Shown here piece by piece: positions 1,240-17,748 of a stretch of 17,748 nt of DNA. Source of the DNA: an uncultured bacterium (GTDB lineage: Bacteria; Hydrogenedentota; Hydrogenedentia; Hydrogenedentales; JAEUWI01); assembly GCA_963977445.1 (NCBI GenBank), contig CAXBPH010000137.1:1-17748 (forward strand), in the 5' to 3' direction. Under the pieces are notes generated by a model. That model was not told the origin of the DNA and ran no database searches. It saw nothing but the letters and a program-made list of their open reading frames with translations. Made by a program: the position numbers and the translations under genes. The number at the start of each line of letters is the position of its first letter. The stretch's first letter is position 1.

Positions 1240-1243
1240 GTAT

Positions 1244-1720
1244 TCAGGACTCCAGGTCAGTTTCCAGCGAAACAAGTTCCGCGTGAATGCTCCCGTCCTC
1301 CAGCGTAATGCGGGCGACGGTAATGGGCAGGGAAAAGCGGCGGGGTCCGGCACTGCCGGGATTGAGATAGAGTACCCCCGCTTTTTCGGTGACACTTGGT
1401 TTGTGGGAATGGCCGTAGATAACGGCATCAAAGCCACCGGCTACGGGGTCGATATCGAGCTCTTCGATAATGTGTCGGACGTAGATAAAACATCCATTCC
1501 ACTTCACCACATCAAACTCGGGCAGGGTTGCCCCCAATTCTCCCCGGTCCACATTGCCCCGGACGGCGTGTACCGGAGCGATCTCCGCCAATTGGGTCAG
1601 TATTTCGGGTTTCCCAACATCACCTGCGTGGATGATCAGTTCGCAGCCGGTGAGGGCCTGAATGGCTTCGGGCCGCAGGAGGCCATGGGTATCGGAGATG
1701 ATGCCAAGCCAGGGTGTCAT
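1244..1720 (-). CDS. Metallophosphoesterase, YfcE/MJ0936 family, 158 aa
   Basis: All canonical motifs present: ISDTHG, HAGD, VRGNVD, GHSH, NPGSAG. ATGA overlap with the upstream gene at 1717-1720. Confidence 0.93.
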   Translation of the reverse strand: MTPWLGIISDTHGLLRPEAIQALTGCELIIHAGDVGKPEILTQLAEIAPVHAVRGNVDRGELGATLPEFDVVKWNGCFIYVRHIIEELDIDPVAGGFDAVIYGHSHKPSVTEKAGVLYLNPGSAGPRRFSLPITVARITLEDGSIHAELVSLETDLES

Positions 1721-2424
1721 GACGAAGGCTCCGACTGCTCACGGATCAGGAAGATTTTCTGCCATATCTTCCGGCTCAATCCCGTGGTCAGGGTTTCCAC
1801 ATCATTGACGGCGGAAACGACGGTGCCATCAGGAAAGTGCTGGGCATAGATGGACGCGAGCTTACCCACCAAAGACAAGAGCTCGCTGCAATAGTCGAGA
1901 TAGCGGTTCAGTTCATAGGAATCCATATCCCGGGACGGCGATGAGGAAGTGCGTCGGGCATCGGGATGGAGCTCGGTGGGGTCTTTGGTGAGCTGGTGCA
2001 TATCGATAACGTGGGCGATGGTGCGTAGTTCATTGAGAGACTGCAAGGCCCGGGCACGTTTAATCCGGGATTCGATGCTTACCAGGAAAAAAACGGCTGC
2101 CCCCATGAGGACGAGGTCGTTGATGCCTGCTTCGAGGGCCTGGATGAAGTCGGTCATGGGAAAGCTTCCGACTTCAAACTCTACCGTGGTGAATCCCAAA
2201 ATCAGCATCAAGGCCAGGAATACGATGAGAAAGCCGACGGCAAGTCGCAGGGCCCGGTTGGGCGTGGCGATCCACATGCATTTGGATTCCGTCTCCAGGG
2301 CGATATCATTGAGCTCTCGGGCGACGAGGGCGAGACTGGAGTCGGGAAAACGCTCGGTGATGCGGTGCTCCAGCCGCTCCAGCGTTTCTTTTGTTTTTCC
2401 CAAATCAAGAGTTCTGTAGGCCAT
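1717..2424 (-). CDS. Conserved uncharacterised membrane protein (2 TM), ~235 aa
   Basis: Two hydrophobic segments, then AHVIDMHQLTKDP, RYLDYCSELLSL and LSRKIWQKI blocks that I recognise from a widespread hypothetical family. ATG at 2424 preferred to GTG at 2448. Stop overlaps the next start. Confidence 0.85.
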   Translation of the reverse strand: MAYRTLDLGKTKETLERLEHRITERFPDSSLALVARELNDIALETESKCMWIATPNRALRLAVGFLIVFLALMLILGFTTVEFEVGSFPMTDFIQALEAGINDLVLMGAAVFFLVSIESRIKRARALQSLNELRTIAHVIDMHQLTKDPTELHPDARRTSSSPSRDMDSYELNRYLDYCSELLSLVGKLASIYAQHFPDGTVVSAVNDVETLTTGLSRKIWQKIFLIREQSEPSS

Positions 2425-2515
2425 GGGATCCCCGATACGTGCGCACACTGCGCCTTGTTCTGCTGACGACGTTGTAGCACTATTTTGCCTGACGGTGCAA
2501 AAGGGTGGGGCGGCC

Positions 2516-3616
2516 TCAAGATTTGGGAAGGAAATGTATCAGCGTCATTTCGGGAGGGCAATTCAAGCGAATTGAGGGGAGTCCTCTATGGTGTTCGGCG
2601 CCTATGCCGGCAGATACGTTTAACCCGGTGTTTCCCACCGTACGATATCCACGTGCCCAATCACGGGGAATGGTGCTGAAGATGACCAGGGGGCCAAAGA
2701 AAGGGATGCGAATCTGTCCCCCATGGGTATGGCCGGCAAGGCACAAATCGATGGGAAAATCGTTGACCTTCAGTATGTAGTCCGGGCGATGGCCCATGAC
2801 AATATTTAACGCGGCCTGATCGATGTTGAGCCAGCGCTGGATGCCCTCTCGGGCCCGTGTCTTTTCGCTGGATGAGCGCACGGTCAGGCCGTAGAGACGG
2901 AGGTTGATGCCCTCGGCGTGGATGAGGGCTTCCTCATTGCGGAGGTAGGCGATACCGCCCATTTTTTCCGGACCATAGGGCAAGAGGGGGCCTGTCGTGT
3001 CGCCCTCGACCATATACATGCCCAGGGGCGGGTTCAGGGTTTGAAAGAGGGCGGCAAGTTTGGGAAGTTCGGTCTGATAAGTTGCTGGCGCGACGGGCTG
3101 GAGGAGGTCGCCCGTGTGGACAATGAGGTCGGGGTTGAGTTCACGGATTTTTGCAAAGACTTTTTCTTCGTAGGAGCCAATGGCGGCCGATTGGATATCC
3201 GTGATATGGAGCAAGGTGAAGGGCCGGTCAATCTTCTCGGTCATCAAGGTGACGTGGCGGATCTTCAGGTTGTGTGGCTCAATGTGGGTGGCGTAGATTC
3301 GCACGGCCACCAGGAGCAGGGCCAACACGATCCAGGTCAGGGAGTATCGCCTGGGCTTTTTGCTTGATGGGGATGCGAGACGAAAAGCGACGGACCCAGA
3401 CAGCAGCATCAGGACCGGTATGGCGAGGGTATTGGTATCATAGGCGATATGAACCATGGTGCCGAACGGGATAAGTCGGTGGCAGAGCAGGAAGACCAGG
3501 TTTGCTAAGACAAAGGCAATCGGGGCCATCAGGAGGAGCTGGGTTGCCCTGCGTGCGCGGCGGTCTATGGCCTCCGGGATCGATGCGTAGCGATCGCCCA
3601 CGGTTGTGCTTTTCAT
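2516..3616 (-). CDS. Membrane-anchored metallophosphoesterase, YkuE/YaeI-like, 366 aa
   Basis: Three N-terminal TM segments, then IEP, LLHITDIQ, PDLIVHTGDL, GHRPD, LCLAGHTHGGQIRIP, VSAGIG and RLNCPPE, the typical YkuE-type layout. Confidence 0.9.
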   Translation of the reverse strand: MKSTTVGDRYASIPEAIDRRARRATQLLLMAPIAFVLANLVFLLCHRLIPFGTMVHIAYDTNTLAIPVLMLLSGSVAFRLASPSSKKPRRYSLTWIVLALLLVAVRIYATHIEPHNLKIRHVTLMTEKIDRPFTLLHITDIQSAAIGSYEEKVFAKIRELNPDLIVHTGDLLQPVAPATYQTELPKLAALFQTLNPPLGMYMVEGDTTGPLLPYGPEKMGGIAYLRNEEALIHAEGINLRLYGLTVRSSSEKTRAREGIQRWLNIDQAALNIVMGHRPDYILKVNDFPIDLCLAGHTHGGQIRIPFFGPLVIFSTIPRDWARGYRTVGNTGLNVSAGIGAEHHRGLPSIRLNCPPEMTLIHFLPKS

Positions 3617-3690
3617 GGAATGTACCCTTGCCGAAAGAGATAGTTCATGGCGTCCTGGAAGGAGGCGATGGCCCCGGATGGTTCTGCGTG

Positions 3691-5619
3691 CTATTGGTCT
3701 GCCTCGTCGTGAGTTGACGGGCTTTCGGGGGTATTCAACGGAAGCCAGAGCACTACGGTCGTACCGCCTTCGGGATTGTTCGCGAACTCAATTCCCCCAC
3801 CGTGGGCCGTCAGAATTTCGGATACGATCGAGAGCCCCAAACCGACACCAAAATCTTTCGTCGTGAAGAGGGGTTCGAACATTTTTGTACGTACGTCCTC
3901 ATCAATGCCCGTGCCGTTGTCCCGGCTCACGACTTCCAGTCGATCATCGATTATGCGGCTGGAGAGTGACAGGGTTGCTTCTCCATCAGCGAAATAGCTT
4001 CCGTCGGCATTTAACATGGAGTCGCATGCGTTTTGCCATATGTTGATAATACAACGACGAAAATTGACCTGATCGATTTCGAGCCTGGCCGTTGCGGAAA
4101 AGTCCTGTTTCACCTGTATGATCGCGGGAAAAGCGAAATCCTCCCGGGTCTCCTGCAACCAGGGTTGGAAGTCCGTCATTTCTCTTTTGTGGGGTCGATT
4201 GCGGGTGTAGTCGAGTAGTTCCTCAATAATTCGGTCGCACCGAAGGATATTCCGCTCAGCCCGAGCCAGGGGGCGTTCCACGTTGAGGTCGGCCGATTTT
4301 GTCCGTTTCATGACCATATACAGGGATGCCCGGATTGTACCCAGGGGGTTGCGTAATTCATGGCTGACGGTGGCGATCAGTTTGCCCAACACGGCCATGC
4401 GCTCTTGCTTCAACAGTTCGACCTGCGCTTCCTCCAAGGCCAGCGTACGTTCGCGCAACCGGAGTTCCAGCTCACGGCGATGTTTTATATGGTCCTGCTC
4501 TCTGGCTTGAGCAATTTTCTGGGTTGTTGCCAACTCGTTGGCCTGGGCACGGCTCTGTCCCACGGTCCAGAAGACGAACGCCAGCATGAGGCTGAGGAGG
4601 GCGCCGCTTCCCCCGGCGATCAACGGTGTCGTGGTGTCTATGGTGGATTGAAAGGCAGGTGTGGGGCGTATTCGTATCGTCCAAACACGATCTGCGATAT
4701 TTCGGTATTGTAAGGTTTCGAAGGTTGATCGATAGGTCAACACCACCGGTTTAAGGCCGGTGGTCGCAAAGTTCTGCTTTTCAAAATCGAAGAGTTGATC
4801 GTTTTGCTCGGTAGATTCACCGTCGAATATATCCAAATTGAGCATGTCTTCGGTGACGTCAGCAATACCGATGAATAGATTGTCGATGATAATCGGGGCA
4901 AAGAGCACGCCGTCGAGGACCGCCAGCCGCTCTGCGGGCGTCTTCGGGTTGCTATGCTTCTTGTACAGCGGGACAAAGTAGAGAAAGCCGGCCCGTGGGA
5001 CCGCATCCTGAACCAGGTCAATCGGGCGGGTCAGGGTGTGTTCCCCCGTCGCAATGGCCTTTTCGACGGCGGCCCGCCGAAGGGATTCTGCGCCTACGTC
5101 ATACCCCAGTGCTTCTTTATTGCGTTCCCGGGGCTCGATGAATCGAATGGGGTAGAGATCGGGTGCACTGCCCGTGGTATGTACCGTGTAGTCCGGTGCG
5201 GCATCGAGACGCTCCGTGGCTTCAAAAGCGGCCAGGTCTCCACGGAGAACGCGCTGTACCAGACCAAATCCGATTGCGCCAGGGAACTCGACGTCAAAAT
5301 TCCGGGACTCCACAAAGGTCCGGAATTCTAATCGTGTAACTTGCTCACTCCCCACGAAGAGATCCCGGGCCCCCATGAGGCCGTGGCCCGTGAGTTTTAT
5401 ACGCCGTTGGATTTCATCGGCCAGCCGTTCCGCTCGCCGTTCAAATTGGAGTTGCGCCTCAATATGGGATTTTTGATGGGTCCACCAGGCAAGAAATCCA
5501 GACAGTATTAACCCAATGCACAGGGCAGTAAGTGGCGGGAAACAGGAAGCCCGATTCCCCCGTGCTGTGATGGTGCCATCAACATCGGGTTCCGATGACG
5601 CTTCCCGTAGTTCCACCAA
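3691..5619 (-). CDS. CHASE-domain sensor histidine kinase, ~642 aa
   Basis: TM-CHASE-TM layout (VTRLEFRTFV, FPGAIGFG, FIEPRERNKEALGYD, LVQD). H-box SHELRNPL, N-box NIWQNACD, G1 DNGTGI, FEPLFTTK, G2 GVGLGL. GGGAG SD precedes TTG 5619 / GTG 5616. Confidence 0.93.
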   Translation of the reverse strand: MVELREASSEPDVDGTITARGNRASCFPPLTALCIGLILSGFLAWWTHQKSHIEAQLQFERRAERLADEIQRRIKLTGHGLMGARDLFVGSEQVTRLEFRTFVESRNFDVEFPGAIGFGLVQRVLRGDLAAFEATERLDAAPDYTVHTTGSAPDLYPIRFIEPRERNKEALGYDVGAESLRRAAVEKAIATGEHTLTRPIDLVQDAVPRAGFLYFVPLYKKHSNPKTPAERLAVLDGVLFAPIIIDNLFIGIADVTEDMLNLDIFDGESTEQNDQLFDFEKQNFATTGLKPVVLTYRSTFETLQYRNIADRVWTIRIRPTPAFQSTIDTTTPLIAGGSGALLSLMLAFVFWTVGQSRAQANELATTQKIAQAREQDHIKHRRELELRLRERTLALEEAQVELLKQERMAVLGKLIATVSHELRNPLGTIRASLYMVMKRTKSADLNVERPLARAERNILRCDRIIEELLDYTRNRPHKREMTDFQPWLQETREDFAFPAIIQVKQDFSATARLEIDQVNFRRCIINIWQNACDSMLNADGSYFADGEATLSLSSRIIDDRLEVVSRDNGTGIDEDVRTKMFEPLFTTKDFGVGLGLSIVSEILTAHGGGIEFANNPEGGTTVVLWLPLNTPESPSTHDEADQ

Positions 5620-6199: not shown

Positions 6200-7588
6200 C
6201 TAATTGGCGGAGGGCACTTCGATCCCGGCGTCCTGGTACTCCTTGAGTTTGTTGCGGAGAGTACGCACGCTGATGCCGAGGAGTTCGGAGGCTCGGGTAC
6301 GGTTTTGGCTGCAGTGTTCGAGGGTCGTAAAAATGAGCTGGCGCTCCATTTCGGAGACCGTGGTGCCGGCGCCAAAGTCTGACGAAGATTCTTGCTTCAG
6401 GAGACTGGACGTGTTGAACTGAAAGTCTTCGGGACTCAGCTCGTTGCCGCTGGCGAGGACGACGGCCCGTTCGATGGCGTTTTGGAGCTCGCGGACGTTG
6501 CCTGGCCAGCTATAGACCGTCAGGGCGTGGCGCGCTTCGGAAGTGAAGCCGGTAATGGACCGCCCATTCTCCCGGTTGAAGCTGCTCAGAAAATGCTCTG
6601 CCAAGTGCGGTATATCTTCCCGTCGTTCACGGAGGGGAGGGAGGGGGATCGTAATCACGTTCAGGCGAAAGAAGAGGTCTTCCCGGAATTTTCCCTCCGC
6701 CACGGCGTCTTCGAGGTCCCGGTTGGAGGTGGCGACGATTCTGGTGTCTATGGGAATGGTCTGGGTGCCGCCGACCCGTTCAATTTCCCGTTCCTGGAGG
6801 GCCCGCAGCAGTTTTGCCTGGAGTTCCACGTTGATTTCGCTCACTTCGTCGAGAAGCAGGGTGCCGCCATCGGCGAGTTCAAAACGACCAATTTTTCGGT
6901 CATGGGCCCCGGTAAAGGCTCCCTTTTCATGACCGAAAAGCTCACTTTCCAAGATGCCCGCCGAGAGGGCCGCACAGTTTACCTTGATGAAGGGTTTGTT
7001 AGCGCGGACACCCCCGAAATGAATGGCCCGTGCGACGAGTTCCTTACCGGTGCCGCTGGCGCCGCGGATGAGGACCGTCGCGCGGCTATCCACGACTTTG
7101 GCGATATCATCCTGCACCTGTTTCATGGCGGCGCTGTTGCCCACCATGGCACCATTGTCGTAGCGGGTGTTGAGCTCTTCCCGGAGATAGCGGTTTTCCT
7201 GGGTGAGGCGGGCGAGCTCCAGGGCGCGGGTGACCGCCAGTTCCAGCACGTCAGGGGCGAAGGGTTTTAGAATGTAGTCGGTGGCACCGCCCTGGAGTGC
7301 CCGAACGGCCGTTTCAATCGTGCCATAGGCCGTCATGACGATGACCCGCGTTTCCGGGTGCTTTTCGAGAACGGCCTTCAGGACGGCCAGGCCGTCGATG
7401 GGGGTCATCTTGAGATCGGTAACGACGACATCATGTTGATAGGTTTCAAAAAGGGCGATACCATCGGCACCATTGGCGGCCGTATCGACATGGTAGCCCG
7501 CGCGGATCAGGGCTTCTTCGACATACTCACGCATGAGTAGTTCGTCGTCTACGACCAGAATTCTATGTTTGGATTGGACCGTCGTCAT
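6200..7588 (-). CDS. Sigma54-dependent response regulator (REC-AAA+-Fis HTH), NtrC family, FlrC/FleR-like, 462 aa
   Basis: REC (ILVVDDE, TDLKM, MTAYG, KPF), Walker A GASGTGKE, GAFTGA, Walker B LLLDEV, WPGNVRELQN, and HTH ending LGISVRTLRNKLKEY as seen in flagellar activators such as FlrC, FleR and FlbD. Confidence 0.95.
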   Translation of the reverse strand: MTTVQSKHRILVVDDELLMREYVEEALIRAGYHVDTAANGADGIALFETYQHDVVVTDLKMTPIDGLAVLKAVLEKHPETRVIVMTAYGTIETAVRALQGGATDYILKPFAPDVLELAVTRALELARLTQENRYLREELNTRYDNGAMVGNSAAMKQVQDDIAKVVDSRATVLIRGASGTGKELVARAIHFGGVRANKPFIKVNCAALSAGILESELFGHEKGAFTGAHDRKIGRFELADGGTLLLDEVSEINVELQAKLLRALQEREIERVGGTQTIPIDTRIVATSNRDLEDAVAEGKFREDLFFRLNVITIPLPPLRERREDIPHLAEHFLSSFNRENGRSITGFTSEARHALTVYSWPGNVRELQNAIERAVVLASGNELSPEDFQFNTSSLLKQESSSDFGAGTTVSEMERQLIFTTLEHCSQNRTRASELLGISVRTLRNKLKEYQDAGIEVPSAN

Positions 7589-7596
7589 GGAATGCG

Positions 7597-8745
7597 TTAC
7601 TCCGCCTGGGGCAGTTGTATAGCGATGCGCGTGCCTTTGCCGGGCGCGCTGTGGGCTGAAAGTACGCCTCCGTGGCCTTCCACGATCTTCTGTGAGACGG
7701 CCATGCCGAGCCCCGTACCTTTTTCTTTGGTGGTGAAGAAGGGGGAAAAGACCTGTTTCAATGCGTCGTCATCCATACCCGATCCGGTGTCTTGAACCGA
7801 TAGATGGACGACATTCTCTCCCGCGACGGCGCTGAGACGTATTTCGCCTTTGTTTTCGATACTCTGGACCGAATTTACAAGAATATTCATCAAGACCTGC
7901 CGCAGTTTATCGGCATCGGCCAATATGCGCAAGTCGGGGTCAATTTCGGTGAAGATGGTAATGCGGGTTGGGTCATATTCCATGTAGCGCATGGCGGCCT
8001 GGGCGATACTCGCGCAGGATGCGGGGGACATCTTGAGTTCCACCGGGCGGGTGTATTCGAGCAGTCCATTGACCACTTTTTCCAGGCTGGCGGTGCCTGC
8101 AAGAATCTTTTGCACCAGACGGTGTCTCGGGTCGCTTTCGGGGGTGTCCTGCGAGAGGAAGGTCGCAAATCCACGGATACCACCGAGAGGATTGCGAATT
8201 TCGTGGGCGACGGTGGCGGCCATTTCGCCAATGGCGGCCAGACGGTCGATTTGGCGGACCTGCTCGCGCAGTGCACTGAGTTCACTCAAATCCTGAAAAG
8301 TCTTCACATAGCCGAGTCGGTTTCCGTCTCGATCGGCGATGACGGAATCGCGCTCACTGACGGGCACGGCCCGGCCGCTTCGGGCATTGAGCTCCATGCT
8401 CCCGGGGATGGAGGAGGCCGCGAAGGGACGACCGAATACGTCGCGAAAGGGTTGTCCGACTACATCAGTGGCATCAAAACCAAGGACGAGGCCTGCGGCG
8501 CGATTGAACCGGGTAACCCGCTCCTCCGTATCTATGGCAATTACACCATCGGAAATACTTTCGAGGAGATTGGACAGGTAATCCGTGGTGAGGGCCAATT
8601 GCAGATTCTTAGTGGCCAGCTGTTGATCCAGATCGGTCACGCGCTGCTGGAGGTGGCGATAGGCCTCTTCCATGCTGGCGGTCGTCTTGGTAAACAGATC
8701 AAAGGCCTGGGCCAATGCTTCTACGTCAGTTTTGGGAGCTTCCAT
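7597..8745 (-). CDS. Cytoplasmic PAS-domain sensor histidine kinase, FlrB/FleS-like, 382 aa
   Basis: N-terminal coiled coil (LAQAFDLFTKTTASMEEAYRHLQ) like FlrB/FleS, PAS, H-box AHEIRNPLGG, DTGSGM, FSPFFTTKEKGTGLG. No TM. Ends 8 nt before the regulator. Confidence 0.93.
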   Translation of the reverse strand: MEAPKTDVEALAQAFDLFTKTTASMEEAYRHLQQRVTDLDQQLATKNLQLALTTDYLSNLLESISDGVIAIDTEERVTRFNRAAGLVLGFDATDVVGQPFRDVFGRPFAASSIPGSMELNARSGRAVPVSERDSVIADRDGNRLGYVKTFQDLSELSALREQVRQIDRLAAIGEMAATVAHEIRNPLGGIRGFATFLSQDTPESDPRHRLVQKILAGTASLEKVVNGLLEYTRPVELKMSPASCASIAQAAMRYMEYDPTRITIFTEIDPDLRILADADKLRQVLMNILVNSVQSIENKGEIRLSAVAGENVVHLSVQDTGSGMDDDALKQVFSPFFTTKEKGTGLGMAVSQKIVEGHGGVLSAHSAPGKGTRIAIQLPQAE

Positions 8746-8820
8746 GTAGGGTCTCGTACCTGTTGACTGATATTTTTTTGAGCCTTCGCCCGCGCCGAAA
8801 CTGCTAAGGAGTGGCGTGCG

Positions 8821-9258
8821 TCAGGCTTCTTTGTCGACAAAGTCTGGGGATACCAGCATCTCTGGCTGGTAAATAGTGACAGAGCGACGTCCCCGGCGCA
8901 AGTCATTGAGGGCGAGTCGCTTGGTGCGCAGGCGCGCCTCGGTGCTGCGTTGTACTGCTTTGAAGCGCTGTTGGACCTGTTCAGAGAGCAGCTGGGCCTG
9001 TTTTGACAGGGCCCGAATGGCTTCTCGTTCCCCGTCATCCATGGTGTCATCGTGCTTCCACTCGTAGGCAAGCCCATGGTATTCCTTGGCCAGATCGCGG
9101 GCTTCTTTTTCCCGCACGGCTTCGCGCTGGATGAGTGCTTCCAGGGCTTCATCGGGAATCTGCTCGGCACCATCCAGATCGGTGAGGGCCTTTTCCGTCC
9201 AGCTGATCTGGCGTTCCAGGAAGTTGGTAATTCGGTAGGCGAGGGGATAGGTGGGCAT
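8821..9258 (-). CDS. Helical protein, possible FlgN/FliT-like flagellar export chaperone, 145 aa
   Basis: All-helical amphipathic pattern. C-terminal ...LRRGRRSVTIY...FVDKEA with a late Tyr is reminiscent of FlgN/FliT. Starts 2 nt after the upstream stop. The CDS is well supported; the family call is tentative. Confidence 0.65.
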   Translation of the reverse strand: MPTYPLAYRITNFLERQISWTEKALTDLDGAEQIPDEALEALIQREAVREKEARDLAKEYHGLAYEWKHDDTMDDGEREAIRALSKQAQLLSEQVQQRFKAVQRSTEARLRTKRLALNDLRRGRRSVTIYQPEMLVSPDFVDKEA

Positions 9259-9260
9259 GG

Positions 9261-12200
9261 CTATCCCGCCTGCGGCGCTTGCGCCATGGGCATGCCTCGC
9301 TGGCGTTGTTCCAATCGGGCAATATTGGCTTTCACACCGGCCTCCTGGGCCCAGGGCGAATCAGACGCAGCGATTTGTTCGTAGAGGGTCAGACATCCCG
9401 TGTAGTCAGCGAGTTGGAGCAACGCATTTGCACGCTGGTATCGCGCCCAGTCGGGATCGGAGCGGAGTCCCGTTACCGGTATGGAGGCGGATTCACTGGC
9501 TTCTTCCGCGATGGAAAAGGCGAAGGTGGCGGTGCGATAGTCTTCTTTTTCATAGAGATAGTCGCCCCACGCAATGGCCGCATCAACGAGATAGGGCGTA
9601 TCGATAGGTGCGTCGTCAACGTGCGCCTTGAGATCCATCACCATACGCCGAGCGGCAGCAGCACGACCCGTGTTGAGATAGGTTCGAAGGAGGGCTTGAT
9701 CCGAATCCTGCGTACGGGATTCGGGGTAATTGAAATAGGCCTGCTCCATTTTTTCGAGCCCCCGTTGGGGTGCAATGGAAAGGAGGGCTTCTCCTTCTTT
9801 CATCAGCAGATTAAATGCGGTTCGTGGGCGGAGGCGCGCAAGATCGAACTTTTCGATGGCTGATTGGGCACTTTCGAGGTCGCCCGTATCAATGAGATCG
9901 ACGGCCGCCTGGGCAAAAGTTTCGGGCTCTGCCGCTTCTGAAATAATTTCTTTTGCCGTGCTGTTCACGTGGCGATCGAGGCCGAGATCCTTGTAGATCG
10001 TCTGCATCGCTTCCAGCGTGGGGAGATAGTGTGAAGTTCCCTGGGTGGCTGCTTTCAGGGCCTTGAGGTCCTCCAGGGCCCGTTCTGTTTTTCCTTGCTC
10101 GTGGCGCAGTTGTGCCACTTCGATGCCCCCGTTAAGGGCTTCAGGCGAACCACCGTAGTGGTTCTTGAGGCGTTCATAGGTATGGATGGCATCCCCGGGC
10201 ATTAGGGCCGCGCGGTAGTAGCGTGCCGCATTAAGCAGGAGATTGGGATCGGCGGCCCCCGCATCGTCGGCGGCGACAAAGGCCAGGGCTGCGGCGAGTG
10301 GATTTCCGTCCAGCCCCTGCAATTCACCATCGTTGCGTAGCACGCGGGGGTTATGGGGGAATTCCAGGGCCGCCCGCTGCGCCGTCTTTACGGCATGCTC
10401 TCGTTCGCCCAGGGCCTCATATACCTGCGACTGCTCAATAAACGCGTCGGGTCGCAGGGGACTGTCCTCGAAAAAAGCGAGTAAATCGGTGAGGGTGTCC
10501 CGGGCATTTTCCAGCTCATCGGCCGCCCGGTAGGTTTGGGCCAGCAAGAGGTACACTTCGTCATTGCCGTCCAGGGTGGTGGTGGTTTCGAGGTGATTGG
10601 TGAGATACCGTTTCGCATTCTCGTATTCGCCACTTTCATAGGCGAGTCTTCCGAGGCGAACAAGGGCCTTGGCACCCAAAGTAGAGTCGGGTGCCTCCTG
10701 TGCCATGCGGATATAGATGGTTCGTGCATCCGAAGAGTTGCCTGCGCGTTGCTGGGCATCGGCATAGGCAAGTCGCGCCTCGCCCGCCCAGACGGAGGCC
10801 GGATATTGAGAGAGCAGGTTTTGGGCATAGATGGCTGTCGTCAGGGGGTCGTTTTCACGTAGCGCAAGCTGGGCAGCATCCAGCAGCATGCGATCCCGAT
10901 TGGGGGCATCTTCATATTGCTCAAAGATGTTCTTGTAAATTTCGAGGGCCGCCAGAGGCTGGTCTTTGGAGAATAGTTGGGCTTTCCAATACAGGGCCTC
11001 CGGTGCGCGGGGATGGGCCGGTGCTGCCTTGAGGACTTCATCGATTCGGCCCGTCATTTCGTCGAAGGCGGGGCTTCCCCATTCACCATGAAAGCCACGG
11101 TATTGCGCCTCCAGCCGAACGTAGAGGGCATCGTTTCGGAGTTCGCCGGGATAGGCCCGCTCAATGGGGCGGTCCAGTTCGTCGACCACACCGAGGTAAT
11201 TTCCATTGGCCAACATGTCGCGGGAGCGTTCCAAAGCAATATCGAGTGCCGCTTCATCGCGGGCCGTATTGGTGTGGGGGCGCACTTCCCGGTTGATGGT
11301 CATAAACAGTCCCGTGCCGGTGGCAAATACGGAGCCCACGAGAAAACAGGCCACCAGTCGCAGTGCGTTTTCTTTTACGAAAACGGCAAGGGGCGATTGT
11401 TTCCTGAAACGCTTTTTCGGCGCCTTTGATGGGCTGAGTTCCTGGACCTTCTCCGTTGGCGGCCCTTCGCCCCGAGCGCTGGCCTGCGCCGCGTCAATGG
11501 CACTTTCCAACGCGTTTTGTTTCGCCTTACTTCGCTCTTTGTCCTGCTCTTTGGAGGCCTCGATTAATTTGTCGAGATCGCTTTGGGAGAGCAGATCGGG
11601 TCCTGAATCTGAGGCGGTGGCCGCCGCGGCCAGGTTCTCCGACCCGATTTCGCTTTGGGACGCTGCGCTTCGCTCGTCGGATGCTTCCTGCTGGGCGCTG
11701 GCGATAAGGGAGTCGATCATATCTTGCGAAATGTCGCCTATTTCGCCATCGTCTTCCTCCTCCTCCTCCTCCTCCGGACTTCCCGCATCTGTCGCTAAGC
11801 CGTCCAACACCCCGGAATTATCCAAATCGGCCATCAGGGAATCGATGCTGGACTTACTCAGCGATATATCATCTCCATCAATCTCGTCCGGGAGAATGGG
11901 GGCGTCCAATTGGTCATTGTTGAGTGGACTTTCGTCGCCGGAATCGACAATGAGCGCATCAATATCAGACTGGTCGAAAGTACCATCTTGTGCCGGGTCT
12001 TTTGGGGCACCTGTCTGGGCATCAAAGAGCTCGGATAGTTCGTCGTCATCAAGTGCCGTCGCCGAACTACTGTCGGCGCTATCGCCACCGGACAGTAGGG
12101 CGTCCAAGTCGGCCTGGGAGAGGAGACCGCCACCTTCCGCCTGTGGTTCAGCGGATGCTTCGTCCTGACCGCCGAGTAGTGCATCCAGGTCGTCTTGAGA

Positions 12201-13637
12201 CAGGGGTGCGTCATCGTTTGCTTCGGGCTGGGTCGGTGCCTCATCCTGTCCAGCTATCAAGGCGTCGAGGTCGTCCTGTGACATGGGACTGTCGTCTTCA
12301 ACCGCCGGCTCGGGTGTTTCGATCTCTCCGGAGATCATTGCATCGAGATCGGCTTGCGACATGGGACTGTCGTCTTCGACGTCCGGCTCAGGAGTCGTTG
12401 GTGTATCGCTCTGGCCCGCGATGAGTGCGTCAAGGTCTTCCTGCGACATGGGGCCGTCGTCTTCATCGGCAGGCTCTGGTGTTGTTGGTGTATCGCTCTG
12501 GCCCGCGATGAGTGCATCGAGGTCTTCCTGCGACATGGGACTGTCGTCTTCAACGGCCGGCTCGGGTGTTGATGGTGTCTCGCTCTGGCCCGCGATGAGT
12601 GCATCGAGGTCGGCCTGTGACATGGGACTGTCGTCTTCAACGGCGGGTTCGGGTGTTGTTGGTGTATCGCTCTGCCCTGCGATGAGTGCATCGAGGTCGG
12701 CCTGCGACATGGGACTGTCGTCTTCAACGGCCGGCTCGGGTGTTGATGGTGTCTCGCTCTGGCCCGCGATGAGTGCATCGAGGTCGGCTTGCGACATGGG
12801 ACTGCCGTCTTCAACGGCGGGCTCAGGTGTTGTTGGTGTATCGCTCTGGCCCGCGATGAGTGCATCGAGGTCGGCTTGCGACATGGAGCTGTCATCTTCA
12901 GGGGCAGGCTCGGGTGTTGTCGGTGTGTCGCTTTTTCCGGCAATCAATGCGTTTAATTCCTCTTGGGAGAGGGTATCGTCGTTGTTGTCATCCAACACGG
13001 GCGTGGGCGCACTATCAACCGGTTCGGAGATGTCTTTTTCGGGTTTTGCCGTAGGCGAAGTTTCGGAGGAAGAAACGGGGGCTGCGGTAGCCGCGCCTTC
13101 CAACGCTTCACGCCGGTGGGTCTCACGCACGACCAGTGCATCCAATAGGGATTGGTCCAGCGGTGGCTCTTCCTCAAGCCACGCGTCCATATCTTCAATC
13201 GGGATTGGTGCTTCTTTCGGTGCCGACGCCTCTGCCAATACGGGCTGGACGCCCTCGTCCGACGTGCCGATTAAATCGTCATCGGGCAGTGATTGGGCGA
13301 TGGCAGCATCGGTTGTGTTGGCCTGTGCGGATGCAATCAGGGCAGTGGCTTCATCACCGGTCGGTGCGGGTTGTGCCTGGGTAGATGCCCGCTTGCGCGC
13401 TGCGGCCTGTCGGGGGCGTCGGGCTGGGGGGATATACGCCGCGTCTCGCGCAGCCCTCGCGGCGATATGTTCTTCTTCATTTCGGAGGACCAGGGGGGTA
13501 TTGTCATCGAGAAAATCCGTGTCTGCCAGAAATCCGTCGTCGAGCAAGGCAGAGGGGAGGCCTGCTTCAGCGGCCTCCAACGCTTTCAACGTTGCTTCGT
13601 CAAGTGACGAAGTTTTCTGCTCGGATTGGTCACTCAT
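9261..13637 (-). CDS. Large bitopic protein: acidic repeat-rich N-terminal region, one TM helix, C-terminal multi-TPR domain (~1458 aa)
   Basis: Uninterrupted ORF. About 16 SQxDLDAL-type motifs, a basic patch KAPKKRFRK, TM LVACFLVGSVFATGTGLFMTI (11295-11357), then YbgF/BamD-style TPRs (APEALYWKAQ, YPASVWAGEARLAYAD, KALVRLGRLAYESGEYENA). Start ATG 13637; alternative ATG 13673. Confidence 0.92.
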   Translation of the reverse strand: MSDQSEQKTSSLDEATLKALEAAEAGLPSALLDDGFLADTDFLDDNTPLVLRNEEEHIAARAARDAAYIPPARRPRQAAARKRASTQAQPAPTGDEATALIASAQANTTDAAIAQSLPDDDLIGTSDEGVQPVLAEASAPKEAPIPIEDMDAWLEEEPPLDQSLLDALVVRETHRREALEGAATAAPVSSSETSPTAKPEKDISEPVDSAPTPVLDDNNDDTLSQEELNALIAGKSDTPTTPEPAPEDDSSMSQADLDALIAGQSDTPTTPEPAVEDGSPMSQADLDALIAGQSETPSTPEPAVEDDSPMSQADLDALIAGQSDTPTTPEPAVEDDSPMSQADLDALIAGQSETPSTPEPAVEDDSPMSQEDLDALIAGQSDTPTTPEPADEDDGPMSQEDLDALIAGQSDTPTTPEPDVEDDSPMSQADLDAMISGEIETPEPAVEDDSPMSQDDLDALIAGQDEAPTQPEANDDAPLSQDDLDALLGGQDEASAEPQAEGGGLLSQADLDALLSGGDSADSSSATALDDDELSELFDAQTGAPKDPAQDGTFDQSDIDALIVDSGDESPLNNDQLDAPILPDEIDGDDISLSKSSIDSLMADLDNSGVLDGLATDAGSPEEEEEEEDDGEIGDISQDMIDSLIASAQQEASDERSAASQSEIGSENLAAAATASDSGPDLLSQSDLDKLIEASKEQDKERSKAKQNALESAIDAAQASARGEGPPTEKVQELSPSKAPKKRFRKQSPLAVFVKENALRLVACFLVGSVFATGTGLFMTINREVRPHTNTARDEAALDIALERSRDMLANGNYLGVVDELDRPIERAYPGELRNDALYVRLEAQYRGFHGEWGSPAFDEMTGRIDEVLKAAPAHPRAPEALYWKAQLFSKDQPLAALEIYKNIFEQYEDAPNRDRMLLDAAQLALRENDPLTTAIYAQNLLSQYPASVWAGEARLAYADAQQRAGNSSDARTIYIRMAQEAPDSTLGAKALVRLGRLAYESGEYENAKRYLTNHLETTTTLDGNDEVYLLLAQTYRAADELENARDTLTDLLAFFEDSPLRPDAFIEQSQVYEALGEREHAVKTAQRAALEFPHNPRVLRNDGELQGLDGNPLAAALAFVAADDAGAADPNLLLNAARYYRAALMPGDAIHTYERLKNHYGGSPEALNGGIEVAQLRHEQGKTERALEDLKALKAATQGTSHYLPTLEAMQTIYKDLGLDRHVNSTAKEIISEAAEPETFAQAAVDLIDTGDLESAQSAIEKFDLARLRPRTAFNLLMKEGEALLSIAPQRGLEKMEQAYFNYPESRTQDSDQALLRTYLNTGRAAAARRMVMDLKAHVDDAPIDTPYLVDAAIAWGDYLYEKEDYRTATFAFSIAEEASESASIPVTGLRSDPDWARYQRANALLQLADYTGCLTLYEQIAASDSPWAQEAGVKANIARLEQRQRGMPMAQAPQAG
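12087..12971 (-). repeat. Coding tandem repeat, 87-bp (29-aa) unit, consensus MSQADLDALIAGQSDTPTTPEPAVEDDSP
   Basis: Unit starts at 12971, 12884, 12797, 12710, 12623, 12536, 12449 and 12362 (exact 87-nt period), then shorter or diverged units at 12284, 12203 and 12122. Confidence 0.97.
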
Positions 13638-13779
13638 GAATAATCTGGTAAACTCCCGGCCGCGATGCCGCATTGTGGCTCAGAAACGGGCCGTGCCCTC
13701 CGCATGGACAACGCTTCCCGTGAGGTATTTAAGGTGGGGCACACCAGGAACTTGTGCATCCAAGTCACCCCGTGAGTCC

Positions 13780-13808
13780 ATTCTATCATGCCTCCTGGTC
13801 GGTCGCAA
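13780..13808 (-). promoter_or_regulatory. Sigma70-type promoter for the TPR/chaperone/kinase/regulator operon
   Basis: Minus strand TTGCGA (13808-13803), 17-nt spacer, TAGAAT (13785-13780), with an extended -10 TG. Confidence 0.65.
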
Positions 13809-13857
13809 TTCCTCTTTCCACTATTATCGGCACAATTCGGGTAGATCATTATTCCAG

Positions 13858-13887
13858 ATGGCATGATTGGGGACAACATGCTAGACT
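13858..13887 (+). promoter_or_regulatory. Candidate extended -10 promoter giving a leaderless transcript for the PAS gene
   Basis: TG-C-TAGACT (13879-13887) ends 6 nt before ATG 13894. Weak -35 ATGGCA at 13858-13863. No SD at normal spacing. Confidence 0.45.
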
Positions 13888-13893
13888 GGGCTG

Positions 13894-14793
13894 ATGAATT
13901 ATGGGCGTCACATACCACTATCTATCCTGGTCTTGCTTATCGGGGTGATGGTCGCGTTGGTGGGGGCATCGTTTGCCATAAACCTTGCACCATCTCCCTA
14001 TACGGGGAGCGTGGTGGCGACGATTGCGATCCTGGTGTTCCTGGCGGCGACGGGCTTTATCTTCTGGATCGTTCGGGAACTGGAACACAGCGAAGAGTGG
14101 TTGCGCGTCGTGGTGGAGAGTGCTCACGATGGCATTATCACCACCGATGGCTATGGGTTTATAGAGCGAATCAATACGAGTACGGTATCCATGTTTGGGT
14201 ATCGTCCCGGTAAACTGGTGGGTGAACACGTTTCCGCCCTGCTTTCGTCTGCCCATGGTGAACGTGGCGACTCGGAGGATTTTGTCGCCTATCTTGAGCG
14301 GGAGGGAATGGGCGAGTTGGGGGTGCCCCATGAAGTGAGCGGGCTCCGCCTTGACGGCCAGCGCTTTCATATGGATATGTCTATTGCTCATGCCCGCCTT
14401 GGCGAAGAGGACATGTTTATCATCATGGTGCGCGACGTGACGGAACGGGTGGGGGCGCAGCGGGTATTGCAGGAGGCCCGGGACCAGCTGGAACACCGGG
14501 TTCGTGAGCGAACTGCCGCACTCGAGGAATCCAATAGTCAGCTTGCCTCCGAAGTGTCCCAGCGTAAGACTCTCATTGAGCAATTGCAGCAGGCATTGAC
14601 CGAATTAAAGACCCTCAACGGACTGCTGCCGATCTGCGCTTCCTGCAAGAAGATTCGCGATGACAAGGGGTACTGGAACCAAATCGAAGTCTATATCCGT
14701 GACCATTCGGATGCAGAATTCAGCCACGGAATCTGCCCGGGTTGTATCGAGGAACTCTATCCGGAACTGAGCCGGCCCCTGAACGAGACGTGA
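13894..14793 (+). CDS. Membrane PAS-domain signalling protein with a C-terminal Cys/His-rich putative zinc-binding tail, 299 aa
   Basis: Two TM helices, FixL-like PAS/PAC (SAHDGIITTD, MFGY, LRLDGQRF, VRDVTER), coiled coil (LEHRVRERTAAL), then GLLPICASCKKIRDDKGYW...FSHGICPGC. No kinase, GGDEF or HTH domain. Confidence 0.92.
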   Translation: MNYGRHIPLSILVLLIGVMVALVGASFAINLAPSPYTGSVVATIAILVFLAATGFIFWIVRELEHSEEWLRVVVESAHDGIITTDGYGFIERINTSTVSMFGYRPGKLVGEHVSALLSSAHGERGDSEDFVAYLEREGMGELGVPHEVSGLRLDGQRFHMDMSIAHARLGEEDMFIIMVRDVTERVGAQRVLQEARDQLEHRVRERTAALEESNSQLASEVSQRKTLIEQLQQALTELKTLNGLLPICASCKKIRDDKGYWNQIEVYIRDHSDAEFSHGICPGCIEELYPELSRPLNET

Positions 14794-16403
14794 TAGGGCG
14801 CTGGCAGAGGATGGTTTTTTCATTTTGCCTTGCGGTGACTATCGTTCTGAGCGCCCTTGCGTGGTCATTTAACGTTCTTTCCTTTGACGATGCGAAAATG
14901 ACCGTGTTCTGGCCGTGTCTGTTTGTGCTATTGGTATTTCGCAGCAACGGGACCCGGTCGATCGTGGCGGGACTGCGGGCATGGCTGCCGGCGTGGCTCG
15001 GTTTGTTCGTCGTCGCCGCATCGAGTTTCGGAATCGCCCACGTGCCAGCACTCAGCATGGCCGGTATCTTACGGGGGGGCGGGCTCCTGGTGTTTGCCAC
15101 GCTGGCCTGGGGAATGACCCAATCGCCTCGGGGGCGTCGCGGTGTCTTCGCGGCGTTGCTCGGGGGGGGATTCCTCGTTGCCGTGTTGGCCTTGGGCCAG
15201 CAGTTCGGGCTTCTGAACGTGCTATTTCCAGCCTTCGACCACTATGACCAGGCTATGTATGGGGTTTTCGGCAACCAGGCGCTACTTGGGGGCTACCTGG
15301 CGCTGGCAATCCTCATGATACCCGCTGTATTCGGCGCGGGGCAGCGCAACATGTCAACGTGGAAGGCGCTCCTCGGACTTTTCCTGGTTGCGGTGATGTT
15401 TCTGGCCCTGATTCTTTCTGAGTCGCGCGGGGGGCAATTGGCGTTGTTGGTAGGGACCCTTGCCTGGTTGGCCACCGGACGTGTCACATCCCAGAGAAGT
15501 GTCCGTCTCGCCATTGTGGCGGTGGGGGTGGGGATATTGATTGTTGTGCTGGCGGGGGGCGCAAGCCAGGACAAATGGTTCCAAACCGCCGGTGACACCG
15601 ACAGGGGCAGTCAGGTCCGTTCGTGGATTTGGTCGGGTAGTATGCAGATGGGTCTGGCTCACCCGGTACGGGGCGTCGGCGTCGGTAATTTCGCTTATTG
15701 GGCTCCCTCCTACATGGGGGACGTCCCTGCGACCTATCACAACGAGCGCACGACCTACCATGCCCACTTTGACCTGTTGGAATTCTGGTGTGAAACGGGT
15801 CTTGTGGGGTTGGTCTTTCTGGTCGGGCAATTTTCCCGATTTCGCCTTCGGAGCGGTCCGGCCTTTGGGGCCATGATGGCCCTGATCGTCTTTTCCTGTT
15901 TTCAGCCGGCCTGGGCGAGCACACCCCACGCGATGGCCTTCCTGCTGCTACTGGGGATGAACTTGCGCTCCAGCGTGCCCCGCTACGTTCCTGACGTGTT
16001 GCCGATCGCTTCGAACCGGCCGTACATTGGATTGGTGGTAGTGACCGTGGTCGGTGGGATGCTCTATGGGGCCCTGGTCCTGCGCCCGAGTTTTCTCTTG
16101 CGCCGTGCCGAAGACAGACATCTTGCGGGCCAGGAGGCGGGGCCGGACTACGAAAAAGCGGTGTCGGCGGGCGGATTTCAGGGCGAGGCCCAGGAAAGCT
16201 ACGGGATGTATCTTCTGGGGCAGGGCCGGCCCGATGCCGCATTGACATCATTTCGCGTCGCGCAAAAGGAATTGGATACGGGCAGACTCTATTTCTTGAT
16301 GTACGAGGCGGCCACGGCCCTGGGCGACGAAGAATCAGCAGGGCAGTACCGGGAAGCGTGCCTGGCGCGATGGCCCTGGGCGACGTCTCGATTTTTACGG
16401 TGA
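14790..16403 (+). CDS. O-antigen ligase / Wzy_C family membrane glycosyltransferase with C-terminal TPR-like tail
   Basis: Many TM segments; GVFGNQALLGGYL, LILSESRGG, RSWIWSG...HPVRGVGVGNF, HAHFDLLEFWCETGLVG. GTG 14790 overlaps the upstream TGA (GTGA); ATG 14811 is an alternative start. Confidence 0.88.
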   Translation: MIGRWQRMVFSFCLAVTIVLSALAWSFNVLSFDDAKMTVFWPCLFVLLVFRSNGTRSIVAGLRAWLPAWLGLFVVAASSFGIAHVPALSMAGILRGGGLLVFATLAWGMTQSPRGRRGVFAALLGGGFLVAVLALGQQFGLLNVLFPAFDHYDQAMYGVFGNQALLGGYLALAILMIPAVFGAGQRNMSTWKALLGLFLVAVMFLALILSESRGGQLALLVGTLAWLATGRVTSQRSVRLAIVAVGVGILIVVLAGGASQDKWFQTAGDTDRGSQVRSWIWSGSMQMGLAHPVRGVGVGNFAYWAPSYMGDVPATYHNERTTYHAHFDLLEFWCETGLVGLVFLVGQFSRFRLRSGPAFGAMMALIVFSCFQPAWASTPHAMAFLLLLGMNLRSSVPRYVPDVLPIASNRPYIGLVVVTVVGGMLYGALVLRPSFLLRRAEDRHLAGQEAGPDYEKAVSAGGFQGEAQESYGMYLLGQGRPDAALTSFRVAQKELDTGRLYFLMYEAATALGDEESAGQYREACLARWPWATSRFLR

Positions 16404-17572
16404 CAAAGGATCTGGTGGATTTCCGACGGGGTTTTCTATCGAAATCACGGTGTCGGACCGGTCATCCGAGTTTCCGTCGAAGGTGGCCGGCAGGAGACTT
16501 TGGATGGTTACCACATCATCAACATCCACACCTTCTTTGATGTGGACCCGATACACGCGGTCGACCTTGGGGACAAAAACATCGGAGTGCCACGTCGTAT
16601 CGTAGACCTGACCGCTCACTACCCGGGTCCCGGTATTGGCTTCGACGATGGAAATTTCCCGACGAAGGGGATGGGAGGTCTGAAGGTCAATCTGAACGCG
16701 ATTACCCCGAAGATCCAACCAACGGGAGCCCGAAGATTTCCATTGAAACACGGGTAAACTTGTCGTGGCCACGCCAAGGGGTTGGGGGTGCCCGTCATTG
16801 GATTTTACGGAGGCATGGATTGCCGGCCATTCCTGTACTGGATTTAAGACCTCGCCGACGAGGATAGACTCAACGGAATAGATTGTCATGTTGGCAAGAA
16901 GAAGCAGAGCCAGTCCCTGGGTAACCCATAGTCCGGTGCTTTTCAAGGGAGACAACGCGAGGCCCTGTTTCAACAGCAACCATGCAATCAGGCCGGACAG
17001 GAACAGAACCGGCAAGAAAAGTGTGGGAGAAAACCAGGAGAATACGTAGGCCAGGGTGGGGGGGATCACGGCCACACAAACGATACGCCGGGTCGTGCAG
17101 CGCGGCTTTATCCCGAATATCCACAGCAGTATGTTCAAGAGCAGCGGTGCCACCAGGATGGTCAACGTGCCCACGAGCAGACGGGTCATGGTCATTTCGT
17201 GTTGGATGAAGTCTACCAGTGAAGTCGGCGCTTGGTTGGGACCCTGATTGTCGTTGTATATCCGCAGGCCCCCCACAATGACCGCAGCGATTAAAAGGGT
17301 GAATCCAACCCAGAAGAATGGCCCATCCGGTTGGCGTCGCGTGACCTGTCCCTGCTCCTGGGAGCGCTTGGCGATGCCGGGCGTCATATGGCCCTGGGGT
17401 TTGTGATGGAGCAGGATGGACTTGCACTGCCAGCAATTGCTTTGACCGCCGTTATTCTGGGCACCGCACATAGGGCACACATTGCCCTGGCTCAAATCGA
17501 TTCCGCTGTCGCTGTCGGTTAGTCGAAGATCATCGGCGTCATTAATCGGGACTACCGGAGGTTTTTTTTTTT
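16395..17572 (-). CDS. Zinc-ribbon multi-TM membrane protein; probably the C-terminal part of a frameshifted TPR gene
   Basis: CPMC-x10-CWQC ribbon, about 5 TM segments, beta-rich C-terminal domain. The ORF-track N-terminus (17660-17573) looks like out-of-frame translation of the TPR frame. The 3' end overlaps the convergent ligase gene by 9 nt. Confidence 0.75.
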
Positions 17573-17748
17573 GTCCGTGTCCGATACGGCACTGCGCAGA
17601 CGGGAGGCTGCATGTCCGGCCATGGGGTGGTGGGGGTCGAGTTCGAGGGTCTTTTCCCACATGATAGCGGCGTTGCGGTGGTCTCCCGCGATTTCCAATA
17701 CCCGGGCCAATTGCTCATACAGCCCTATTTCATCGGGCCAGATAGCGA
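17552..17748 (-). CDS. Partial TPR-containing reading frame entering from the right edge, ending just after an A11 tract
   Basis: Hand translation from 17746: AIWPDEIGLYEQLARVLEIAGDHRNAAIMWEKTLELDPHHPMAGHAASRLRSAVSDTDKKKNLR*, containing a clear TPR unit. Not listed in the ORF track. Confidence 0.8.
   Translation of the reverse strand, partial: AIWPDEIGLYEQLARVLEIAGDHRNAAIMWEKTLELDPHHPMAGHAASRLRSAVSDTDKKKNLR

Follow-up and report, generated by a model that had tools for sequence, protein, structure and literature searches.

A 17,748-nt stretch of contig CAXBPH010000137.1 (hereafter, the window), from the genome of an uncultured Hydrogenedentota bacterium (GCA_963977445.1), encodes a 1470-aa protein, P0001, with 16 copies of a short motif that resembles a peptide at the N terminus of FliM, a flagellar C-ring protein. 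From the N to the C terminus, P0001 consists of an acidic region that carries the motifs, a single transmembrane helix, and a tetratricopeptide repeat (TPR) domain. We interpret this as a docking peptide that is already known but is here displayed in many copies and anchored to a membrane, which is a new arrangement. Our favored reading is that P0001 is a flagellum-linked docking array for proteins that bind the FliM motif, with phosphorylated CheY (CheY~P) as the favored partner, and we give this a probability of roughly 0.4. The features of the gene are:

9261 to 13673, minus strand: gene of the 1470-aa protein P0001 (open reading frame [ORF] list and translation).
11562 to 13160, minus strand: 16 FliM-type (EIDAL-like) motifs, residues 172-704 (pattern search).
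12093 to 12971, minus strand: core of 11 consecutive copies, residues 235-527, mostly in 29-aa units, e.g., EDDSPMSQADLDALIAGQSDTPTTPEPAV.
11562 to 11861, minus strand: three membrane-proximal motifs, LSKSSIDSLM, ISQDMIDSLI, and LSQSDLDKLI, which recur in orthologues.
11616 to 11639, minus strand: second conserved linear motif, ENLAAAAT ((GS)ENLAAAAT), between the last two EIDAL-like motifs.
11301 to 11357, minus strand: predicted transmembrane helix, N-in, residues 773-791 (19-aa hydropathy 1.95).
9294 to 11276, minus strand: predicted periplasmic TPR superhelix of about 660-680 aa (Pfam TPR_14, TPR_19, TPR_21, and TPR_6).

The array was searched with a relaxed pattern, [LMIFV][SDT][QKE]xx[LIM][DN]x[LM][LIVM], and all 16 copies can also be described as [LMIF][SD][QK]xx[LI]DxL[ILMV]. 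They start at P0001 residues 172, 235, 264, 293, 322, 351, 380, 409, 438, 464, 491, 518, 566, 605, 648, and 695. A preliminary description of this DNA, made from the letters alone, had placed the array at 11562-13160, with 11 consecutive copies and the five diverged copies LDQSLLDALV, FDQSDIDALI, LSKSSIDSLM, ISQDMIDSLI, and LSQSDLDKLI. Residues 172-704 map to that span to the base, the consecutive copies are those starting at residues 235 to 518, and all five diverged copies are present. In the core DNA, Tandem Repeats Finder detects an 87-bp tandem repeat at 12339-12932 (6.8 copies, 88% matches), as well as periods of 174 and 261 starting at 12265.

The array lies far above chance. When the N-terminal 760 residues were shuffled 2000 times, the mean was 0.007 motifs and the maximum 1, versus the 16 observed. 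Across the window protein and its 34 orthologues (35 proteins), the motif matches 166 times in 14,523 N-terminal residues and only 2 times in the 24,086 residues of the C-terminal TPR halves; the background rate, taken from 398 other ORFs of the same loci, is 1 match in 130,186 residues.

The FliM N-terminal peptide is the textbook meeting point of the chemotaxis signal and the motor and is normally regarded as present in one copy per FliM subunit. The preliminary description had called the motifs FliM-like, and an unbiased search agrees: phmmer with three repeat units against 177,635 PDB sequences gave a sole match, FliM (8umd_C, residues 3-34, E=0.035). The alignment pairs DSILSQAEIDALLNGDSDTKDEPTPG with DSSMSQADLDALIAGQSDTPTTPEPA of 8umd_C and spans both the motif and the linker. 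The consensus of 154 motif instances, (D/E)3-x-P-[LM]-S-Q-x-[DE]-[LI]-D-A-L-[IL]-A-G, agrees with FliM SQAEIDALLNG at every conserved position. The peptides of FliM, FliY, and some FliN proteins have the same conserved residues and spacing as the array, with a Gly two residues after the motif, and the FliM peptide is likewise cytoplasmic and flexible, with an acidic, Pro/Thr-rich linker behind the motif. One source states that CheY binds FliM at its conserved EIDAL motif near the N terminus (PMC6946799).

P0001 differs from FliM in other respects. FliM, which belongs to the C ring and has CheC-like and SpoA domains, bears one copy of the peptide at its extreme N terminus, while P0001 is a membrane protein with 16 internal copies, which mostly have Leu for Ile and Asp for Glu. 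Thus, P0001 shares with the FliM peptide its consensus and its setting on a flexible cytoplasmic tether, but the peptide is neither single-copy nor carried by a C-ring protein, and Pfam finds no FliM, CheC, or FliMN_C domain in P0001. Because the single-copy and C-ring features are lacking, P0001 is judged not to be a member of the FliM, FliY, or FliN family. A complex prediction of E. coli CheY (Swiss-Prot) with P0001 residues 256-290, run without controls, scored 0.01 against a mark of 0.34 and speaks neither for nor against binding.

Conservation within the repeats is concentrated in the motif. Over 154 distinct instances from the 35 proteins, Q, D, and L are conserved at 98%, 96%, and 97%, respectively, while the linkers are variable. 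When the window's seven units of 29 aa are compared with one another, synonymous and non-synonymous differences number 52 and 22 in the motif codons (252 comparisons) but 59 and 100 in the linker codons (357 comparisons), in both cases counted over pairs that are not independent. These patterns support purifying selection on the motif relative to the linkers, in line with the selection proposed in the preliminary description.

The placement of the array relative to the membrane follows from charge. The region N-terminal to the helix is strongly acidic (net charge −144 over residues 1-760) and enriched in Ala, Ser, Pro, and Thr. Around the helix of P0001 there are seven Lys and Arg residues upstream and three downstream, and the means over 34 proteins (33 orthologues and the window protein) are 4.6 and 1.6. 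This asymmetry places the acidic region, and with it the motif array of P0001, in the cytoplasm and the TPR domain in the periplasm. For the last 700 residues, AlphaFold2 (27 aligned sequences) models an all-alpha superhelix of 36 helices, with a mean predicted local distance difference test (pLDDT) score of 89. With the hydrophobic helix at residues 773-791 and the Pfam matches to TPR_14, TPR_19, and TPR_21, the earlier label of a membrane-anchored TPR protein holds. A 527-aa open frame on the plus strand (12283-13866) overlaps the array; it is most likely an artifact of the repeat and the G+C content, as homology and domain continuity favor the minus-strand gene.

Searches with the TPR half yielded 26 orthologues with 42-73% identity across the C-terminal 700 aa, of which the two source-named ones are Candidatus Hydrogenedentes. 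In species-representative genomes, the TPR half identified 34 loci, which lie in Hydrogenedentota metagenome-assembled genomes except for a few that bear the automatic labels "Nitrospirales" or "uncultured bacterium." On these matches, the family is confined to Hydrogenedentota. Copy number varies across the 34 loci from 0 to 20, as the preliminary description had anticipated, with 20 copies in the orthologue at locus L017. Fifteen of the orthologous ORFs have 3-20 motifs, 12 have one or two, and seven have no clean motif; three of these seven are incomplete, two because they lack their 5′ end and one because only a C-terminal fragment is present. Motif-free N termini hold degenerate copies, such as KQEDLDRLM and LPQDLLDSLV. 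The preliminary description had named orthologues lacking the motif as grounds for rejecting its interpretation; such orthologues do exist, in part as truncated sequences, next to the 15 that carry an array, and they count in part against that interpretation.

The two ends of the array also evolve differently. The three membrane-proximal motifs are kept position by position (P0002-P0004, P0010-P0012, and loci L001-L005/L009), unlike the distal copies, which are fast-evolving, expanding, and contracting. The neighboring ENLAAAAT motif is similarly retained: columns E, N, A, and A are nearly invariant in the orthologue alignment, and the pattern EN[LIV][AV]A[AS] occurs in 22 of the 34 orthologous ORFs. 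From the spread in copy number and the contrast between conserved proximal motifs and labile distal copies, we interpret the array as an accessory module that evolves fast while the TPR protein bearing it stays stable, rather than as the core of the family.

Since the E-value of the FliM match is marginal, independent support was sought on other carriers of the motif. A phmmer search with residues 160-720 against 1.84 billion representative proteins gave 84 matches, and 43 of 81 new proteins from this array scan have at least three motifs. Some belong to the present TPR family, with the array, a transmembrane helix, and a tail of ~680 aa. Nine other representatives combine the array and a transmembrane helix with a tail of only 131-144 aa. 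With a profile of ten proteins (P0038 in addition to these nine), FliL is matched both in C. jejuni (9hmf_O, E=1e-8), where the alignment takes in the transmembrane helix as well as the periplasmic domain, and in H. pylori (7sgn_A, E=2.5e-6), and four of the ten FliL-type array proteins have sub-threshold but correctly placed Pfam FliL matches. Ten further FliL-type relatives all have 6-8 motifs, and some are named FliL by JGI. The FliL-array proteins (P0047, P0063, P0067, P0075, P0076, P0085, P0099, P0105, P0106, and P0113-P0122) carry 4-14 motifs before the transmembrane helix. The FliL homologues of Desulfobacterota have 6-14 copies, and one of the ten further relatives is from the cultured Desulfatiferula olefinivorans (JCM14469_21600). 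Like P0001, they combine a cytoplasmic array, one transmembrane helix, and a periplasmic domain; they differ in phylum and in the periplasmic domain, which is FliL of ~135 aa rather than TPR. We found no paper on FliL-borne motif arrays in the literature searched.

The same peptide is multiplied on FliN-type proteins. P0103 matches FliMN_C (E=1.9e-22) and has five motifs. Together with 119 listed relatives (P0123-P0241), it makes up a set of 120 FliN-type proteins. One motif is present in 43 of these, two in 37, three in 13, and five in one; thus 51 have at least two. The organism-named relatives are Planctomycetota/Phycisphaerae, and the relatives range from 0 to 3 motifs. Several of the FliN relatives carry the precomputed Pfam label PF28396. 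Two to five copies of the motif are also found in proteins with an N-terminal zinc ribbon, Zn_ribbon_4 (P0039, P0070, and P0073), and in Big_9 proteins (P0058 and P0066), and many array carriers have no Pfam family at all. The Zn-ribbon and Big_9 carriers raise the possibility of motif partners that are not flagellar.

Altogether, these homologies indicate that in other phyla, too, the FliM peptide has been multiplied, there on proteins of the C ring and on stator-associated ones, and that arrays apparently arose in parallel on three carriers. No other observation argues as strongly as this recurrence on FliL and FliN for shared partners of the Hydrogenedentota array. With the flagellar genes found near the TPR gene at four of 34 loci, it also upholds the flagellar link proposed in the preliminary description. 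That description knew of no characterized protein of this architecture, and we likewise found no such array described in the searchable literature, which leaves out subscription-only papers.

Downstream of the TPR gene, the window encodes three further proteins on the same strand:

8821 to 9258, minus strand: 145-aa three-helix protein, predicted to be cytoplasmic (P0031, cluster c3), directly downstream of the TPR gene.
7597 to 8745, minus strand: soluble PAS-HisKA-HATPase histidine kinase (Pfam; no transmembrane segment).
6200 to 7588, minus strand: REC-AAA+-HTH sigma54-dependent response regulator (Pfam).

This order (TPR protein, small protein, kinase, regulator) is kept on one strand in the window and in most untruncated loci. 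The kinase cluster (c1) is present in 26 of 35 sources and the regulator cluster (c2) in 19 of 35. The flagellar regulators FlgS/FlgR and FlrB/FlrC likewise combine a soluble kinase and a sigma54 regulator. NCBIfam does not put the pair nearer to them than to AtoS/AtoC or to the PEP-CTERM pair; all its matches, among them those of the regulator to AtoC, PEP_resp_reg, FlbD, and FlgR, fall below cut-off. The small protein P0031 (AlphaFold2 pLDDT 83; 15 cluster members) ends in a disordered but conserved tail, RRGRxxxxxYRPxxxxxPxFxDRxA. Two of the six cluster members scanned match Pfam FlgN (PF05130) below the cut-off of 30.5 bits (E=0.001 and 0.015; 20.0 and 16.2 bits), and FlgN appears in 27% and 11% of the members of its Atlas clusters; by these weak leads, P0031 may be FlgN-like, but it has no secure family. 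Neither profile searches nor Foldseek gave a PDB match for the cluster. A longer ORF that overlaps it (8721-9173) is probably spurious.

We scanned with Pfam 229 neighboring ORFs of at least 120 aa. Flagellar genes were present within 10 kb of the gene at four of the 34 loci: FlgA, an FlgG-type rod protein, and MotB at L008; FliH at L014; FliF and FliG at L021; and FliD and FliS at L030. These genes show that the phylum is flagellated, and they hint, though not strongly, at a linkage to the TPR gene; the Hydrogenedentota paper PMC10866078 contains nothing on motility. A single-domain receiver near the L009 gene was considered as a partner and rejected, as it is of the phytochrome-associated Rcp type and not CheY.

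Other genes surround the operon. Just downstream of the sigma54 regulator, another sensor kinase is encoded (3691-5619, minus strand), whose CHASE domain is periplasmic, and at L002 a similar kinase of ~629 aa (cluster c1) follows the regulator. A 299-aa PAS-only protein (13894-14793, plus strand) is divergent from the TPR gene and is kept at L009 (cluster c17). Farther upstream are an O-antigen-ligase-like Wzy_C membrane protein (14742-16403, plus strand) and a 421-aa protein without a family (16395-17660, minus strand). Their clusters, c4 and c6, both adjoin the gene in its closest relatives (L001, L002, L009, and L023), and c4 alone does so at L010. Near the L012 orthologue there is an FHA-sigma54 activator (20613-22067), and a 1255-aa coiled-coil protein (1138-4902) is encoded directly upstream of the 20-motif orthologue at L017.

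We infer the motor location, partner identity, and physiological effect of P0001 as follows. In a flagellated Hydrogenedentota bacterium, P0001 would cross the inner membrane once, with its periplasmic TPR half as a scaffold and its cytoplasmic half as a disordered, strongly acidic tether bearing 16 docking peptides. Each copy would fold as a short amphipathic helix on a protein that recognizes the FliM N terminus, most probably phosphorylated CheY. One molecule could then hold many CheY~P near the membrane, beside the motor, where the switching signal might be buffered or concentrated, or FliM outcompeted. Copy number, which appears to shift quickly by tandem duplication, would set the capacity. 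We favor CheY~P because FliL and FliN arrays sit where the switching signal acts, and because a buffer or concentrator of variable capacity fits rapid change in copy number. A broader version is that three unrelated proteins, the Hydrogenedentota TPR protein, Desulfobacterota FliL, and Planctomycetota FliN, independently gained arrays on their cytoplasmic tails as an undescribed motor accessory. This would be a disordered, acidic "brush" that surrounds the C ring, binds CheY~P (or FlhG) molecules by the tens to hundreds, and sets switching gain, speed, or memory, with capacity adjusted through rapid repeat expansion and contraction. We regard this version as possible but somewhat unlikely.

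Several results weigh against the reading of P0001 as a flagellar docking array for CheY~P. The array is dispensable in the family, since seven of the 34 ORFs (three of them truncated) have no clean motif and 12 have only one or two. The FliM match is marginal (E=0.035) for a motif of only ~10 residues. FlhG is documented at the same motif (sources cited below), and sequence alone cannot single out CheY. The TPR domain has no detectable sequence relation to known motor scaffold proteins, and its fold match is generic. Flagellar genes are within 10 kb at only four of 34 loci, and CheA, CheW, CheR, CheB, and methyl-accepting chemotaxis proteins are absent by Pfam from both the window and the 229 neighbor ORFs. 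A sigma54 promoter scan gave 21 matches versus 17.9 expected, with none upstream of the TPR gene. Finally, the untruncated orthologues at L024, L026, and L031 (no clean motif) and L030 (one motif) keep the kinase, and three of these also keep the regulator. Of the earlier interpretation, the FliM likeness, the cytoplasmic site, the variable copies, and the flagellar link therefore stand, while the motif is not found in every orthologue and CheY is not the sole textbook partner.

The main rival to CheY~P is FlhG, a MinD-type ATPase of flagellar number and place. The array would dock FlhG and gather it at the membrane or motor, serving there as its landmark or sink, much like HubP in Vibrio, and would couple the control of flagellar number to the neighboring sigma54 regulator. 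An acidic repeat protein with one transmembrane helix resembles the general plan of HubP/FimV, and the operon includes a sigma54 activator. In a study of S. putrefaciens, the EIDAL motif of FliM is described as both necessary and sufficient for FlhG binding, and FlhG fails to reach the pole without it (10.1101/2022.04.21.489128); a second source lists as FlhG partners FliM/N via the FliM N terminus, FliY in B. subtilis, and the sigma54 activators FlrA/FleQ (PMC12826062). Neither flhF nor flhG is among the 229 neighbor ORFs scanned, however, and Pfam does not find the LysM hallmark of HubP/FimV in P0001. FliL is a stator-associated, late-assembling part, so FliL arrays suit a switching signal better than an assembly factor. 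On this evidence, FlhG capture is unlikely. We judge similarly doubtful the reading that the motifs are amphipathic helices in an acidic spacer, involved in self-association, the membrane, a condensate, or another partner, with a convergent likeness to FliM. Such a reading suits a short motif with a marginal match, arrays on proteins without a recognizable flagellar domain (the Zn_ribbon_4 and Big_9 proteins and the many without a Pfam family), and the presence of ENLAAAAT, which shows that the region holds other linear motifs. It does not suit the residue-specific conservation of S, Q, D, A, L, and the Gly two residues on, which matches FliM position by position, nor the recurrence of the array on FliL and FliN, nor the purifying selection that appears to act on the motif and not the spacer.

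Two further alternatives start from the neighboring genes. The array could bind the receiver of the sigma54 regulator or the PAS kinase of its own operon, making the TPR protein a membrane sensor or anchor with no direct link to CheY. The conserved gene order is consistent with this, the kinase must receive its input from a partner because it lacks a membrane segment, and the α4-β5-α5 face bound by the FliM motif is common to receiver domains. Yet NtrC-type receivers dimerize through that same face, and FliL and FliN arrays occur without such an operon as far as we have seen. Kinase and regulator are both kept, moreover, at L024, L031, and the 5′-open L032, which have no clean motif, and at L030, which has one; the two-component link is thus independent of the array, and we consider this alternative quite improbable. 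The locus might instead be an envelope or exopolysaccharide system unrelated to flagella, like the PEP-CTERM system PrsT/PrsK/PrsR, set beside an O-antigen-ligase-like gene. The regulator scores 439 bits on TIGR02915 (PEP_resp_reg), the kinase matches TIGR02916, the TPR domain resembles the repeats of YbgF/CpoB and BamD, and a Wzy_C protein is upstream in the window and at L001, L002, L009, L010, and L023. All of these scores are below the curated cut-offs, though (439.1 versus 502.6, 88.5 versus 300, and 69.7 versus 90.1), no exosortase or PEP-CTERM gene was found in the window or the neighbor ORFs scanned, and the FliM-type array would be left unexplained. We therefore rate this last alternative as highly improbable.

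If the docking-array reading is right, arrays of up to 20 copies on membrane proteins beside the motor would place a new stage ahead of the switch, where CheY~P (or FlhG) could be buffered, concentrated, or competed for locally, to an extent that can evolve. This would bear on how sensitivity is set in motors outside the enteric models, as well as on the control of flagellar number. The array also offers a first clue to the function of a conserved Hydrogenedentota operon. The docking-array reading is readily testable, as it calls for short peptides and standard CheY assays, and a carrier of the FliL array, Desulfatiferula olefinivorans, is in culture.

Among known systems, the TPR half is best compared with PflA/PflB of Campylobacter and Helicobacter and FlcA of Borrelia, which are likewise long membrane-associated or periplasmic TPR superhelices in a flagellar setting. 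We know of no cytoplasmic motif array in any of them. When searched against the PDB with a single sequence and with a profile, the TPR domain matched only consensus TPR, CpoB, BamD, and YbgF, and not PflA, PflB, or FlcA. With the TPR model, Foldseek is led by generic eukaryotic TPR superhelices, and the best bacterial match, a C. jejuni scaffold chain (9hmf_K), comes at rank 9 with a template modeling score of 0.28. The TPR half is therefore not detectably related to PflA, PflB, or FlcA, given the lack of sequence relation and the generic fold match; by analogy, the periplasmic half may still anchor P0001 at the motor as those proteins do. YbgF/CpoB and BamD were also rejected as identities, as the TPR domain falls short of the curated cut-offs of both TIGR02795 (69.7 versus 90.1 bits) and TIGR03302 (28.6 versus 81.4 bits).

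For the array, the nearest parallels in concept are proteins that gather regulators. HubP/FimV has an N-terminal periplasmic LysM domain, a transmembrane helix, and then cytoplasmic acidic repeats. Like P0001, it is a large single-pass membrane protein with a long acidic cytoplasmic repeat region that recruits flagellar regulators; according to one source, HubP interacts with FlhF and FlhG (PMC12826062). P0001 has the reverse orientation, with the array N-in and the TPR domain outside, has no LysM domain by Pfam, and carries the FliM motif in its repeats, so an identity with HubP/FimV was rejected. The C-terminal helix of CheZ and the P2 domain of CheA are tethered elements that raise the local concentration of CheY, which is the same concept as proposed here, but they are single copies on enzymes of the pathway, versus 16 copies in P0001.

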